64,000 bases of DNA, from positions 287 through 64,286 of the forward strand of contig RDXM01000082.1 of the NCBI GenBank assembly GCA_004292595.1, read 5' to 3'. How positions within the stretch are numbered: position 1 is the stretch's first letter; the number at the start of each line of letters is the position of its first letter. The position numbers are program-made. This DNA comes from Candidatus Kapaibacterium sp. GTDB taxonomy: Bacteria; Bacteroidota; Ignavibacteria; Kapaibacteriales; UBA4661. Shown here one piece after another: positions 18,001 through 24,000 of the stretch.

Positions 18001-21000
18001 TTTTCGGCGGAGTTTTGTGGCGGTACGCACGTCCAGAACACGAGCGAAATCGGCTTGTTCAAACTCACGGGCGAATCCTCGATTGCTGCCGGAACACGCC
18101 GTTTGGAGGCTGTTACGGGCGCAGGTGTGCAGCTTTATATCGCCAATTTGCACGAGCAAATGACCGCAAAGCAGCGTGAATTCGAGGAAGTACAGCACAA
18201 AATGAAGCAACTCGAAAAAGAACTCTCGAAATTCCAAGTAAATGCTCTTGCGGGGCAAATTGAAGGCTTCCTCACAAAGGCGCAAAGCGTGAATGGAGGC
18301 GGCTTGCGCGTGATTGCAGAGCAAATCGAAGTTGCGCACATTGACCAACTGAAAGCACTCGGCGACGAACTCCGCAATGCACTCGGAAAACAAGGCGTGG
18401 GGCTACTTGCAAGCATTATTGAGGACAAAGTGCAGCTTGTCTGCGTTGCCACCGACGACATGAAAGACAAATATCCCGCAGGAAAACTCGTCGGCGCACT
18501 GGCGAAAGAACTCGGCGGCGGCGGCGGCGGAAAACCGCATTTGGCAACAGCCGGCGGGAAAGATGTGGAGAAACTTCCTCAGATTCTGAGCGGCTTTGCG
18601 GGGTTTGTGGCAAAGTTTTGAATGTGATATTTTTCCGAAAAACGTATGAATTTTGAATGGCACGACGAAAAAGCAGCGAAGAATTTGGCAAAACATGGTA
18701 TATCATTTGAAGAAGCCGAAACGGTCTTCGGTGATGTATTCGCCCTTGTCAATCGTGATGATAAGCACTCTGCAGTCGAGGAGCGTTGGTTGATTGTTGG
18801 CACAGCAAGCATTGGTTATATTCTCACAGTGTCGTACACGATGAGAGATTCAAAAATCCGAATTATTTCCGCAAGGAGAGCAAATGAAAAAGAACGAGAA
18901 CCATATCAGCAATTCCGAGCAGGACGACTTGGAAGTGCCGGAGTTTAATTTTGACGGTGCTGTGCAAAATCCCTTTGCGGCGCAATACAAAAAGGGCGTT
19001 ACCCGCACCATTATCAAAAGCGACGGTACAAAAGAGCATTTTATTCGCTTAGACCCCGACGTTGCAAAGCACTATCGCTCGGCAACGTCGGTAAACAAGG
19101 TTTTGCGCCGTGCGGTACAGAATCGTCAGCATTAAGCGATTATGCAACGTCATTTTGCCCTTTGTATTTGCGGTAGCAACAGCGACCAAACAACCGACAT
19201 TCAACCACAAAAAGTCTATGAAGTTCTCCCTGACGGAGAGGCTAAAAGTGTAGGAATGATAGGGATTGTGGATGATTCGAGTGAAGATTACCTATATCCG
19301 TTATACTGTTTTCTGATACTTTTGATTAAACGATTGAATAATGCTATGATACTATATTCCAAACTTAGCTTACTGGTCTGTGCATTGCTTTTTAGCGTTA
19401 TGCAGGTAAAGGCACAGTCATGGCAACAAGCCGTAAAAGAAATTAAAGAACGAGTTACGAATACTTCCGATAAAAAGTCGAAATTTGAACGGGTTATGGA
19501 AGAAGAGCGAGAACGAGCCATGTCATCAGAAGAAAATATTACTTGGGAAGTTATACGAGAGATAGGAGAGTTGGAATATACTCCTGAGAAGGGTATTCCT
19601 ACTCAGAGGTATCTCACTGATGAAGAAAAATTATCGGCATACAAGAAAGAAATAGCTGAAAAAAGCGATGCAAAAAAACGCGCTTTCCTTGACTTTGTAC
19701 AAGCACTGTTACAGAAATTCGACTTAGTGAAGGACTTCCCGAAAGTTGATTGGGAGAAAGGTTTCACGCCGCCTGTTCAGCCTACTGGTGATAAGCAAAA
19801 AGACAAGATACTGCAAGACGCGAGAAAATTCAATGACAGTGTTTATGTGTTTGGTCACATAACACAGTCCTTGCTGATTGACAAATCAAATGAAGAAGGC
19901 AAAAAAAATGCGTTTTACAACTTTTATCAAACCATTGTTGCGCGTAAAGCTCGAAAGCAAAAAGTATCTGCAATCCGAGAAACATACCATGCGCAAGCAT
20001 TGGAGCTACAGAAAGCATTTGAGTTTATTCCAGCAAAGCCAGAAGAGGCAGATAAAAACTTTGTAGCTGAATTCTTTTCCGATTTGACATGGATACAGAC
20101 TTTAGCCGGACAATTAGCAGATGCTCAGAAGAGTATTAAAATAAGCTACGGACTCGTTTATGATCAGGATTCAGATTTACGGCGGAAAGTAGAAATCAAT
20201 CTGGCTCATTTAGCAATGTTAAATCAAGAGTTTGCAGTTGCGGATTCTTTGTATCTGGTACACGCTCTCATACCAATATCAGAGGGCAATTCCATCGGAG
20301 TAATGTGGGCAGATGTTATCGAGGATAATTTTAATGCCATGAAAGATCTCTTCATACCCATTCCTCATTCAGATTCTATTCTTGCGGTTATACAAAAAAA
20401 GCGTGTAAACGAAATATTTACTATAAAAGATACTAACTATACGCAAAATCATTGGGTTACACCTATGGTTGCGCGATATTCTTGGCTAGAAGAAAAAGAA
20501 CTAGTAGTGAAAATTAGTCCAAATGGTGCTATTGTAGCTATAAGACCTTGTAAGTTATCAAGCGAGTGTGAATTTTTTACACTGTATAACGCACATACAG
20601 GAGCAATCATCAAAAAAAATAGCTGTTCAGACTGCAAGAAAATAGAAGATGCTCAATTTTCACCAAATAGCAGATTCTTTACATGGGTAGAGGTGAATAA
20701 AGAAAGTAAACAAGCCACTATTAGAGGATATGATATTATAGACAATAGAGTGAGCGTCATGGCAAATTTTCAACTGCCGAATAGCTTTTTATCATACCCG
20801 TTTCAATTTGCCTTTCATCCTGAAGGAAAATTTATTGCGATAGGCGACTTTAAAGAAATTGCATTATTTGATATTCAAACATCCAAACAAATGAGTATTA
20901 TGAAATATAGCAATAATCCTTATCCAATGGGTAGCGAGTCTGATAGGTCCCGATGGTCAAAATCACACTATCGAAGTTTCACAAATTCCCTCATATTCTC

Positions 21001-24000
21001 AAACGATGGTAAACTATTTCACCTTTCACGGTTTGAGAGTGAGTTACAGGTATATCAAATCAAAGAAATTCAGAATATGCTGGGAAAAACAAGTTATGAT
21101 ATTGTCCCCACAAAAAAATATAGTAATGTAATTGATGTAGTTTCTAATGGTATTGTCGTACTCAACGATAATGGAGTAATAGCTGTTAGCATGACTGATT
21201 CAAGCGGCTCACTAACCCCTATTCTCAGAAGTCCTTTTTCTTCGTTTGACCCTCAAGATGAGTTTCACAAATCTCTTAGGGATAGTATTGCATCTACAGA
21301 GTTCATTGCTATCTTTCCTGACGGGCGGCATTATATTCGAGGACAAGAATCAGGTGGGAGGCATACTTACATCCAAAATTTACCTACTACGTTAGAATTT
21401 ATTGCAGAAAAATTGATAACAAAAGAGAAAGGTGTTATTGAACAATATAATAAGAGTTTGGTTAATAGGTTGGCTATTTTCAAAAATAACATCGCAGATT
21501 TACGAAGAAATTTTATTGAAAAGAAATATGCCAAAGATTCTGACTCTTGCCTCAAATTTTTTCGTGATTTGCAAATGTTTCCAGAATATCTATCGGATTT
21601 CAAACGGTCTCTAAAGTCAATGCAGGCAAATCCTTATGATAGAACTGATGTAAAACTCCTATCGAATGTAATTTCTGAATCTGATGAAGCGGCTTCACAG
21701 ATTTCCAAACAATTACCACAAATGCTTGCTACGGTTAAAAGTAAACTTAATGAGTTTGATAAGCTAACTGAACGGAAGATTCAAGAGGTGGGAAGTTTAT
21801 TGAGAAAAGCAGAAATAGCTGAGGAAGAATATAAATTAAAAAAAGGTTTAGTAGTAACTGAGAAAGAATTTAGAAAACTTCTGAAAATTGGTAGTCGTTG
21901 TTCAAAGGAAATAATTCTCCAGGTTAAGGGAGATGCTGTCTTAGTACAATCTGTGAATGGTGATGCCTCTAATGCAAAGTGGTATAATTTTAACGAAATT
22001 AAGGTTTTCTGTTAATAGCTCAAATCGCTTTATTGCAAGTGTAAAATAATCTGCCCTCTCCCCGTAGGCACACTTGTTTTGTCTAACTACTAAACTCAAA
22101 TTCTCAAATCCTTTATCTCCATTCCTAGCTCATTTATGCCAAAACTATTTTCATATTGTATTCCTGTGGATGATGGTGCTGCTCCTAATCCATATTGGGG
22201 CATTTGCACACTTGCAATCTGCAAACCAGTTATTAGGCGGGTTGCAGAGGTTGGCGATTGGATTGTTGGCACAGGCTCTAAACAATTCGGTTTTGAGAAT
22301 AAAGTTGTCTATGCTATGAAGATAACTCAAAAGCTCACTTTGAAAGAGTACGACGATTATTGCAGAAAAGAGTTGGTCAAAAAAATACCTCTCTATAAAG
22401 ATGCAGACATAACGAAAAGGGTTGGTGATTGCATATATGATTTTACCCTTAGCCCTCCAAAATTAAGAGACAGTGTACACGATGAAGGTAACATAAAAAC
22501 TGACTTGGGTGGAAAATGCGCCTTGCTATCCACACATTTTTATTATTTCGGAAAAGAGCCTAAAGCCTTACCTCTTGAATTATATGGGATTGTACAGCAA
22601 GGACAAGGGCATAGATCTAGCAGTAACGAGCCATTTGTTGAGTTATTCGTTTCTTGGATTACCACGGAATTTAGCAATCTGAAAAACCAAGTGACTGCAC
22701 AGCCACATTATATTGACCGCTTATTTAAAGATGATGCCAATACCTGCGCGCGTCGGCATGAGCAAGAAGATAAAGAAGATGAGGACTTAGTTCCTCATTG
22801 TTAAAAATTGATTCATAAAGTTCAATTTGACTTTCTTAAAATATATGAATGATCTCGAAGAACTTGAATACTCCGTCATTGAAACGGAAGAAGAGGATGA
22901 CGAAATGCCCAATTACACGCATGGCGAATTGCAATGGCAGATTATTCACGCACTGTTTTCTGTACTATTGCCTGAATACAAGGCTTTACCGCCAATCACT
23001 TTTCAAGGCTTATACAGAAAGTTTACACCAGATGTTGTTGTTTATCCAAAGCGCACAAAACCTCACGACAAAACAAGCCGCGAGTATCGTGTAGAGCAGA
23101 GCGCACCACTGCTGGCGATAGAGATTATCAGCCCCGACCAAACCATGTTCGACATGGTGCAAAAATGCTCGGAAATGTTAGAATCCGGCGTTGAAGAATG
23201 CTGGATACTGGAACCCGCAAACGACACTATCACCGTTTGCCGCAAGGACAACCAGTTTGTGAGGCATCGCGGCGAATCTCTTGAATACAGGCTGTGTACG
23301 CGCCCGCTCTCGGTCGATGAAATTTTTGATGTAAAATAAGTTTATCAATTTTTATTAGCCCCATGTACATTCTCGGTATATCCGCTTTTTACCACGATTC
23401 CGCAGCCGCTTTGCTGAAGGACGGCGAGATTATTGCCGCCGCGCACGAAGAACGCTTTACGCGCAAAAAACACGACCCAGGCTTTCCGAAAAAAGCTGTT
23501 GAGTATTGCTTGCGCGAAGCAGGAATCAAGCTGAAAGACGTGGAAACGCTTGTCTTCTACGACAAACCGCTCCTGAAATTTGAGCGACTTTTGGAAACGT
23601 ATTACGCCTTCGCGCCCAAAGGTGTACGCTCGTTTTTGATGTCAATGCCAGTGTGGTTGAAAGAAAAAATGTTCTTGAAAAAGCTGATTTACGATGAATT
23701 AAAAACCATCGGCGACTATGATAAATCCTCGCTGAAACTGCTTTTCCCCGACCACCATTTGTCCCACGCGGCAAGCGCGTATTATGCCTCTCCCTTCCAA
23801 GACGCTGCCATCCTCACAATTGACGGCGTTGGCGAATGGGCGACGGCTTCTATTTCGCATGGCAAAGGCAAGGATTTGACGGTGCTGAAGGAACTCCATT
23901 TCCCGCATTCGGTGGGATTGCTGTACTCAGCATTCACGTATTTTCTGGGTTTTCGGGTGAATTCTGGTGAATACAAACTCATGGGACTTGCGCCCTACGG

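Follow-up and report, generated by a model that had tools for sequence, protein, structure and literature searches.

An AT-rich two-gene cassette next to alaS

A 64,000-nucleotide stretch of contig RDXM01000082.1 from Candidatus Kapaibacterium sp., referred to here as the window, was analyzed around the interval between the core gene alaS and a carbamoyltransferase gene. The interval contains an AT-rich cassette (19300..22810, forward strand) with two genes, one encoding an 889-residue predicted exported protein (19346..22015, +) and one encoding a 222-residue protein of the Nmad2 family (22136..22804, +). The cassette was delimited by its GC content, by alignment of its junctions, and by its presence in a sister species and absence from an outgroup. 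The left junction lies at 19300/19301, and the right edge is approximate. A BrnT and probable BrnA toxin-antitoxin pair and the relic of a small gene precede the cassette, and a Uma2 gene follows it. The initial annotation described 18640-23340 as a single island. The open reading frames (ORFs) lie where it placed them, and the island separates into four pieces with separate histories: BrnTA, the relic, the cassette, and Uma2.

GC content across 19300-22810 is 0.367 versus a window mean of 48.6%. Outside 19000-23000 the 500-bp bins have a mean GC of 0.494 (standard deviation 0.040), and seven successive bins in the trough fall at z = -2.6 to -3.8. Of the six 500-bp bins with the lowest GC in the window, five are in the trough, and its five most tetranucleotide-deviant 2-kb windows all lie inside the tract. 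A drop from about 55% to about 37% had been reported for this region; the trough is real (36.7%), but the 55% baseline applies to only part of alaS, and the right flank has a GC content of 48-51%. GC at third codon positions (GC3) is 0.30 in the large gene and 0.33 in the Nmad2 gene versus 0.53-0.59 in alaS, the carbamoyltransferase gene, and the MBOAT gene, so amino acid content does not account for the deviation, which is compositional. Further GC minima of the window (0.38-0.39) are found at 37001-38999 and 25001-25500.

The locus was compared with a sister species (GCA_013298775.1; L001) and an outgroup (GCA_025363605.1; L089/L090). The sister gene order is alaS, DUF2283, a 949-residue ORF, Nmad2, Uma2, a second Uma2, carbamoyltransferase, and MBOAT, and the same cassette is located at the same site with the same GC trough (0.33-0.39). 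Protein identities between the two species are 96% for AlaS, 98.7% for the carbamoyltransferase, 97.8% for MBOAT, and 91% for Uma2; the large protein and Nmad2 are 68% and 71% identical. The outgroup order is alaS, an intact 66-residue gene (P0155), a 168-residue membrane protein, DUF2283, a 41-residue Uma2 relic, and carbamoyltransferase. AlaS and the carbamoyltransferase of the outgroup are ~86% and 90% identical to those of the window, and both the large gene and Nmad2 are missing from its locus.

The left junction falls inside the lineage-specific gene that is intact in the outgroup. P0155 directly follows alaS in L089/L090 and is homologous to the first 53 codons of a 957-codon ORF that is open from 19142 in the window. 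These codons (19142..19300, +) are a relic fused in frame to the large gene. DNA homology to the outgroup ends at 19299 after ...EDYLYP, with GAAGATTACCTATATCC to the left of the break and GTTATACTG to its right, and resumes at 23223 inside Uma2. The collapse in GC content coincides exactly with the end of homology at 19299/19300. The junctions recur in the sister genome and in L002, an independent, 100% identical Logan assembly, and they are therefore not an assembly artifact.

These comparisons date the cassette. Since gene content, position, and low GC of the cassette are shared with the sister species, the acquisition would predate the split of the two sister species and would be old rather than recent. 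The tract is missing from the outgroup and the small gene is intact there, which favors acquisition over a native AT-rich region. The proposal of horizontal acquisition thus stands with respect to the foreign composition and the outgroup without the tract, but not as a recent event. The same genes, locus, and composition in relatives would indicate an ancestral low-GC region, and they were found in the sister species only; the outgroup is without the cassette. Synteny was also examined in 80 genomes found via alaS. The next-closest genomes (L003-L015; alaS ≤67% identical) have neither island genes nor the carbamoyltransferase gene near alaS, and they therefore do not inform the question of alaS-carbamoyltransferase adjacency. 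Judged by gene order in the three related genomes, the alaS-carbamoyltransferase interval appears to be a recombination hotspot for accessory genes, with different cargo in each.

The exported protein and the Nmad2 protein

The ATG at 19346 is favored as the start of the large gene, giving an 889-residue product with a predicted signal peptide. In the distant family members P0127, P0128, and P0130, the signal peptide stands at the very N terminus. Homology of the window to a truncated copy on a 1-kb metagenome contig (L192 716-916) starts precisely at 19346, and 19275-19374 is 99% identical between the two species versus a background of ~91%. The relic codons also favor this start, with the first 60 codons of the 957-codon ORF having a ratio of nonsynonymous to synonymous divergence (dN/dS) of 0.64 versus the sister species. 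The dN/dS value, the signal-peptide starts, the P0155 relic, and the L192 start make it unlikely that the N-terminal 68 codons of the longer ORF form a real domain. The L192 copy has 66 codons, encoding the signal peptide and ~40 further residues before a stop. It lies in an unrelated context, and the large gene is therefore considered mobile. The sequence TACTTTTG (19317..19324, +), 22 nt upstream of the ATG, matches the Bacteroidota -7 promoter consensus TAnnTTTG. This motif is not enriched across the window (51 found versus 42 expected) and is a weak promoter hint. A scan for sigma-70 promoters and terminators gave no useful excess over shuffled expectation, and a Rfam scan of 15500-24000 gave no match at E ≤ 0.1.

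The layout of the 889-residue protein is approximate. The signal peptide (residues 1-23) is MILYSKLSLLVCALLFSVMQVKA followed by Q, with the cleavage site placed by the -3/-1 rule. Low-confidence helices extend to ~205 and are followed by TPR-like helical repeats (205-355), a WD40-type β-propeller (385-676), a long coiled coil (679-832), and a small conserved β domain (850-885). The AF2 model is poor (predicted local distance difference test [pLDDT] score of 52), and only the propeller assignment was used. Foldseek matched the model to WD40 propellers (WDR5, Prp19, and others; E = 4e-9, probability 1.0), and phmmer matched residues 475-530 to WD40-repeat proteins. The Pfam match is weak (PF25174, E = 8e-6) and far under the cut-off. 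NCBIfam, PADLOC, and PHROGs gave no meaningful match, Pfam detected no surface-anchoring or secretion-tail domain, and a PDB sequence search with the C-terminal domain gave no match.

Full-length matches among 5.8 billion proteins are limited to the large protein itself and its sister ortholog. An exhaustive search with HMMER brought in three more full-length but distant relatives, along with many matches to single WD40 blades, and no family member was found in viral contigs. P0127, P0128, and P0130 share the signal peptide, TPR region, a degenerate propeller, coiled coil, and a C-terminal domain of ~45 residues with the pattern G.R..KGL....G..VLVQP..G.A..AKWY. By these searches the family appears to be a near-orphan one. 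The gene for P0128 is directly upstream of a defense island (L185 1259-8573) with two PDC-S26 genes, a PvuRts1I-like/SRA methyl-directed endonuclease, and PDC-M64B. In both L185 and the window, a member of the large-protein family adjoins a gene related to modified bases. Another relative sits near a PemK toxin.

The 222-residue protein had been considered unplaceable. It is a full-length Nmad2 protein (PF18753, E = 2.3e-58) that scores 197.4 bits versus a Pfam gathering cut-off of 26.1, with residues 1-190 matching model positions 1-193 of 200. It has 988 homologs, mostly 50-60% identical and ~220 residues long, in Bacteroidota, Chloroflexota, Gammaproteobacteria, and Methanoperedens, and this group is referred to as the solo subfamily. 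An alignment of 49 sequences has 39 invariant columns spread along the protein, including Y7, C8, D12, APNP16-19, C29-K30-P31, R34, D41-W42, H115, and D123. The window protein and the sister allele (P0002) retain all 39. NCBIfam, PADLOC, and PHROGs gave no meaningful match, and a PDB sequence search found no relative. The AF2 model has a pLDDT of 90.7. Foldseek gave weak matches in the PDB to ZmASCH (E = 0.018), Mmi1 YTH, THYN1/EVE, the McrB N-terminal domain, and TRIP4 ASCH, and matches in a viral structure library to ASCH and DUF3850 proteins (best E = 0.002). A PUA-like fold is likely from this model but unproven. The family is named and biochemically uncharacterized.

The 92 immediate neighbors of solo Nmad2 genes in 57 metagenome loci contain no recurrent family, no Uma2, and no homolog of the large protein. 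A conserved partner (Uma2, HNH, or the large protein) was rejected, as none recurs among these neighbors. The same set includes PD-Lambda-1, PDC-S11, Old/GajA/AriA-like ATPases, TIR, Mrr, and Nmad3. One Nmad2 relative comes after a type I restriction-modification system that has an AAA_21/RloB pair (L084), one lies inside an integrase/resolvase island with HNH genes (L085), and one follows a 1073-residue BNR/Sortilin propeller (L083). On one IMG/VR viral contig (L100 2742-4532), a TET/JBP-family dioxygenase gene is located two genes upstream of an Nmad2 homolog; a TET/JBP neighborhood is the classical DNA-hypermodification context for the Nmad2 domain. On a second viral contig Nmad2 adjoins a MotA/OmpA pair.

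In a separate, distant Nmad2 subfamily (~30% identical), the gene shows translational coupling to a TIR gene, the stop and start codons abutting or overlapping. Such TIR-Nmad2 pairs are found on plasmids of Beijerinckia, Sinorhizobium, and Parabacteroides (L189 3534-4639, L190 3507-4651, and L191 3505-4633) together with MazG-like, uracil-DNA glycosylase (UDG), thymidylate synthase, methyltransferase, nucleotide kinase, and radical SAM genes. This gene content suggests a widespread defense operon combining TIR with nucleotide modification.

Mosaic divergence of the cassette and its flanking genes

DNA identity to the sister species is at the ~91% background in alaS, at 19175-20374 and 21757-21956, from 22748 onward, and in the carbamoyltransferase gene. 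Two hypervariable segments interrupt this background. Segment A (20375..21756, +) covers residues 344-803 of the large protein, comprising the propeller and the first part of the coiled coil; DNA identity drops abruptly to 55-76% and then returns, and protein identity is 52%. Segment B (22351..22747, +) covers approximately residues 65-204 of Nmad2 with 67-72% DNA identity and 63% protein identity. The 5′ region of the Nmad2 gene (22052..22250, +; 84 nt upstream and the first 38 codons) is ultra-conserved, with 94-100% identity to the sister species. The 5′ regions of both cassette genes (19275-19374 and 22052-22250) are 94-100% identical in a pair of species whose synonymous sites differ by ~31%. 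Either regulatory constraint or very recent gene conversion would explain this near-identity.

The segments also stand out at synonymous sites. The pooled flanks have dN 0.015, dS 0.40, and dN/dS 0.038. The corresponding values for the large protein are 0.057, 0.31, and 0.19 (residues 1-343); 0.34, 0.94, and 0.36 (344-803); and 0.075, 0.25, and 0.30 (804-889). For Nmad2 they are 0.042, 0.07, and 0.58 (residues 1-64) and 0.25, 1.26, and 0.20 (65-204). The cassette backbone thus has a dS of 0.25-0.31, and dS in segments A and B is 2.4-3 times background. The proportion of synonymous differences (pS) in A and B is 0.54 and 0.61 versus maxima of 0.36 and 0.44 in flank windows of equal size. GC3 is uniformly low over all segments. 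Positive selection alone does not raise synonymous divergence. The raised synonymous divergence and the sharp segment edges point to older alleles that recombination has introduced or preserved, and segmental homologous exchange with divergent alleles is the most likely origin of the pattern. The propeller appears to have been replaced wholesale between the sister species. In every segment the two Kapaibacterium Nmad2 alleles are each other's nearest relatives, which places the exchange within a pool of related alleles; independent import of the variable segment from another Nmad2 lineage was rejected on the same grounds.

A diversity-generating retroelement target was also rejected. There is no internal repeat pair in 19100-23400, no island gene has a second, silent or paralogous copy in the window, and the variable segments (0.4-1.4 kb) are far larger than the variable regions of such elements. 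The lack of template repeats and silent copies argues against a retroelement or cassette mechanism within the window.

The left anchor of the interval, alaS (16075..18621, +), has the Pfam domains tRNA-synt_2c, tRNA_SAD, and DHHA1, read in the identical locus L002, and a dN/dS of 0.065 versus the sister species. BrnT (18646..18948, +), a toxin of the type II toxin-antitoxin ribonuclease family, matches PF04365 with 94 bits (E = 6.9e-27; cut-off 34.5) and PHROG 4399 (E = 1e-21). The probable BrnA antitoxin (18884..19135, +) overlaps BrnT by 65 nt. Its match to PF14384 (E = 0.013, 16.3 bits) is under the Pfam cut-off of 26.1, and the assignment is based mainly on position, size, and a C-terminal match, adjacency and overlap with BrnT being as expected. 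The overlapping BrnT/BrnA pair of the initial annotation is therefore firm for the toxin and weak for the antitoxin. BrnTA (18646-19135) is absent from the sister and outgroup loci and was found in this genome only. The window-specific DNA is 18651-19155, and the sister genome has a 200-bp DUF2283 gene in its place in a clean swap. By these alignments BrnTA is apparently a separate, unrelated insertion exchanged in a strain-specific manner.

Uma2 (22827..23339, +; DUF820, PD-(D/E)xK-like fold) matches PF05685 with 53.3 bits (cut-off 27; E = 3e-14) and the PADLOC candidate PDC-S03 (E = 3e-14). It had been counted as island cargo. Uma2 is placed in the native backbone and not in the cassette because its GC3 is 0.49, its dN/dS of 0.057 indicates strong purifying selection, and the 41-residue relic that abuts the carbamoyltransferase gene in the outgroup is a C-terminal Uma2 fragment. 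Its evolution resembles that of core genes. The carbamoyltransferase gene (23363..25228, +; PF02543, PF16861) is the right anchor and the first gene of a surface-glycan modification operon. Its product is 89.7% identical to that of the outgroup, and the gene is followed by MBOAT and then by an ORF whose GDSL-lipase match is weak (E = 0.008). A 203-residue Zeta_toxin/AAA_33-like gene in this operon (27928-28539, +) has no counterpart in the sister genome.

Variation extends to the other side of alaS. A lipoprotein-like ORF of 332 residues with a ...LQSC signal (15019-16017, +) lies just upstream of alaS and is 30% identical to its sister counterpart, against 96-98% identity in the flanks; with this ORF the locus has a second exported protein that is hypervariable. 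A DinB_2 gene, three small-ORF/PIN pairs, and a ParE-like pair found upstream of alaS in the sister genome (L001 3252-6208) are missing from the corresponding position of the window. Toxin-antitoxin modules differ among all three related genomes, and the alaS neighborhood is a toxin-antitoxin hotspot on both sides.

Origin, function, and relation to known systems

The locus is probably best explained by an AT-rich two-gene cassette that was anciently acquired into a hotspot beside alaS and later underwent allele exchange, with Nmad2 as a conflict module and the large protein as an exported scaffold. An AT-rich segment of ~3.5 kb would have entered the alaS-carbamoyltransferase site before the sister species split, by illegitimate recombination without an integrase or attachment site, and would have replaced the 3′ end of the 66-codon gene and whatever lay beyond it. 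The source would be a low-GC, probably Bacteroidota-type gene pool, since the closest Nmad2 relatives are in genomes of 37-40% GC; the cargo would be an exported protein and a cytoplasmic solo Nmad2. The cassette backbone would then have diverged as fast as the rest of the genome. Much older alleles, obtained by homologous exchange anchored in the conserved flanking stretches, would occupy the propeller region and the C-terminal two-thirds of Nmad2, and such a pattern would be the signature of loci under diversifying or balancing pressure. Nmad2 would be an autonomous single-gene conflict module with a PUA-like (ASCH/EVE/YTH-type) fold that binds or processes the modified nucleotides or nucleic acid of invaders. 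The large protein would be an envelope-located binding scaffold with the propeller as a variable specificity surface, probably acting independently of Nmad2.

Several observations weigh against this model. There is no tRNA at the tract to provide an attachment site, the sole tRNA of the window being at 55819-55891; no direct or inverted repeats above chance bracket the region as a target duplication; and no integrase or other mobility gene was found among the ORFs of the region scanned against Pfam. The initial annotation was correct in noting that integrase, tRNA, and direct repeats are missing from the borders. The marks of a classical integrase-mediated island (integrase or recombinase, tRNA or attachment site, flanking direct repeats) are thus absent. 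Those of an operational definition (deviant composition, absence in a relative, definable junction) are present, with one outgroup only and a cassette that is shared with the sister species. The polarity of gain rather than loss depends on that one outgroup organism, in which the locus is rearranged. Values of dS are noisy and partly saturated in the AT-rich, ~50%-identical regions, only two full alleles are available, and recombination is read from the pattern of divergence. The dN/dS values (0.2-0.7) are never convincingly above 1, so positive selection is unsupported. GC3 is still ~0.30 in both species despite a dS of ~0.3, which would not be expected of an old transfer without continued arrival of low-GC alleles. 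The PUA-like superposition is weak (best E 0.002-0.02, TM 0.3-0.5), a search of 50,697 cultured phage genomes gave no match to the solo subfamily, and a defense role for Nmad2 would follow from guilt by association.

Four other explanations were weighed, none of which is favored by the conservation data. It is unlikely that the region is native, with fast-evolving, weakly constrained lineage-specific genes that drifted AT-rich and were lost from the outgroup. The shared genes, site, and GC of the sister species fit this history, as do the missing integrase, tRNA, and repeats and the elevated dN/dS of the cassette genes (0.31-0.35). However, GC3 is 0.30 versus 0.55 in adjacent genes, tetranucleotide deviation within the window peaks in the tract, and the shift at 19300 is the exact end of homology to the intact small gene of the outgroup, whose 3′ end a deletion could not recreate. 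The large-gene copy in the other genomic context of L192 and the scatter of close Nmad2 relatives across phyla also oppose a native origin. A surface-variation locus, in which an envelope propeller protein diversifies together with the glycan operon under phage adsorption or predation and Nmad2 hitch-hikes, is quite unlikely. All members of the large-protein family have signal peptides, hypervariability of the large protein is confined to the propeller and coiled coil, and the lipoprotein-like ORF at 15019-16017 and the neighboring carbamoyltransferase and MBOAT genes and the ORF with the weak GDSL-lipase match would suit such a locus. Nmad2 is equally hypervariable by segment, which is not required of a passive hitch-hiker, and relatives of the large protein are found in defense and toxin-antitoxin contexts rather than glycan loci; the lack of a detected surface-anchoring or secretion-tail domain also counts against it.

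The other two explanations join neighboring genes into one system. A modification-dependent (type IV-like) restriction module in which Nmad2 reads modified bases and Uma2 cuts is very unlikely. In both species a gap of 22 nt separates the two genes, which share a strand, the fold matches of Nmad2 are readers of modified bases (ASCH, YTH, EVE, McrB N-terminal domain), and Uma2 combines a restriction-endonuclease-like fold with a PADLOC defense candidate match; HNH genes abut Nmad2 in other loci, and a large-protein homolog lies beside a PvuRts1I/SRA enzyme. A type IV restriction pair would couple reader and nuclease across homologs, but 0 of the 92 neighbors in the 57 solo loci is Uma2 and no nuclease family recurs. 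Uma2 also differs from Nmad2 in composition and rate and predates the cassette at the site, and the invariant Cys, Lys, Asp, and His of Nmad2 itself may indicate catalysis rather than mere reading. That BrnTA, the large protein, Nmad2, and Uma2 form one co-functioning defense operon is extremely improbable, even though all are on one strand with short gaps and all can be linked in some way to conflict systems. History and composition differ among the four parts, which co-occur nowhere else, the sister species has DUF2283 in place of BrnTA and a duplicated, native Uma2, and the large protein is predicted to be exported whereas the others are cytoplasmic. The suggested conflict- or defense-island content holds for the variable hotspot and for Nmad2 relatives among defense genes, but nothing indicates that the four genes work together.

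The old-acquisition model describes a fairly ordinary kind of accessory islet. It is rather improbable that the exported TPR-WD40 protein and solo Nmad2 form a new two-part conflict system, in which an envelope sensor would be paired with a cytoplasmic PUA-like enzyme acting on modified nucleotides and recombination would reshuffle the specificity segments (the propeller and Nmad2 65-204) jointly. In a weaker version, solo Nmad2 alone may be a new single-gene anti-phage effector. The locus offers a worked-out case of an accessory hotspot that has no integrase, in the little-studied family Kapaibacteriaceae of the Bacteroidota. It also draws attention to a near-orphan exported TPR-WD40 family and to a large solo Nmad2 subfamily of ~1000 members that occurs in defense islands, has a high-confidence model, and is biochemically unstudied. 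If solo Nmad2 is a defense effector acting on modified nucleotides, it would represent a new enzymatic theme in anti-phage immunity; otherwise, this is an ordinary variable islet.

Defense and accessory hotspots between conserved core genes are known, and segmental allele swapping is known in hsdS target-recognition domains, tail fibers, and pilins. The present locus resembles these in its fixed flanking core genes, its variable cargo, and the conserved stretches that bracket hyper-divergent, specificity-like segments. It differs in having no recombinase, inverted repeats, silent cassettes, or paralogous copies in the 64-kb window, and two full alleles are compared. BrnTA resembles BrnT/BrnA systems in its strong BrnT domain and a small overlapping downstream ORF with a BrnA-like C terminus; unlike them, its BrnA match is below the Pfam threshold, and the pair is swapped for DUF2283 in the sister genome. 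Uma2 has the above-threshold domain match of Uma2/DUF820 proteins (PDC-S03) and, unlike island cargo, is resident, under strong purifying selection, and duplicated in the sister species. PUA-like readers and enzymes (ZmASCH ribonuclease, EVE/THYN1, YTH, McrB N-terminal domain, SRA of PvuRts1I) are the best, though weak, fold matches of Nmad2 and share a nucleotide-modification theme with it. Nmad2 differs from them in its larger size, extra helices, acidic tail, and own invariant residues, and has no sequence relation to a solved structure.

The closest link of Nmad2 to defense is DS-4 ("NTTI"), a five-gene Escherichia coli system with Nmad2 as gene 5 that is listed among the validated defense systems of DefensePredictor (PMC13092281). 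One plaque-assay row of that source gives a ~0.9 log reduction of phage Lambda with smaller plaques, and another E. coli Nmad2 is scored there as a predicted defense gene (PMC13092281). DS-4 and its plasmid relatives are TIR-coupled and occur with thymidylate synthase, nucleotide kinase, MazG, or UDG genes, whereas the window Nmad2 and its ~1000 closer homologs are solo with no recurrent partner. The window gene is not of the DS-4 type, with the exported WD40 protein upstream and Uma2 downstream, and no TIR, thymidylate synthase, or kinase gene was found among the ORFs scanned against Pfam in 15019-27915. C8, which is invariant in the solo subfamily, is a Ser in the DS-4 protein. The two Nmad2 proteins are 30% identical (E = 8e-27) and have in common the motifs APNP, CTLxxCKPxIR, GDWIxG, and HFYYFG.

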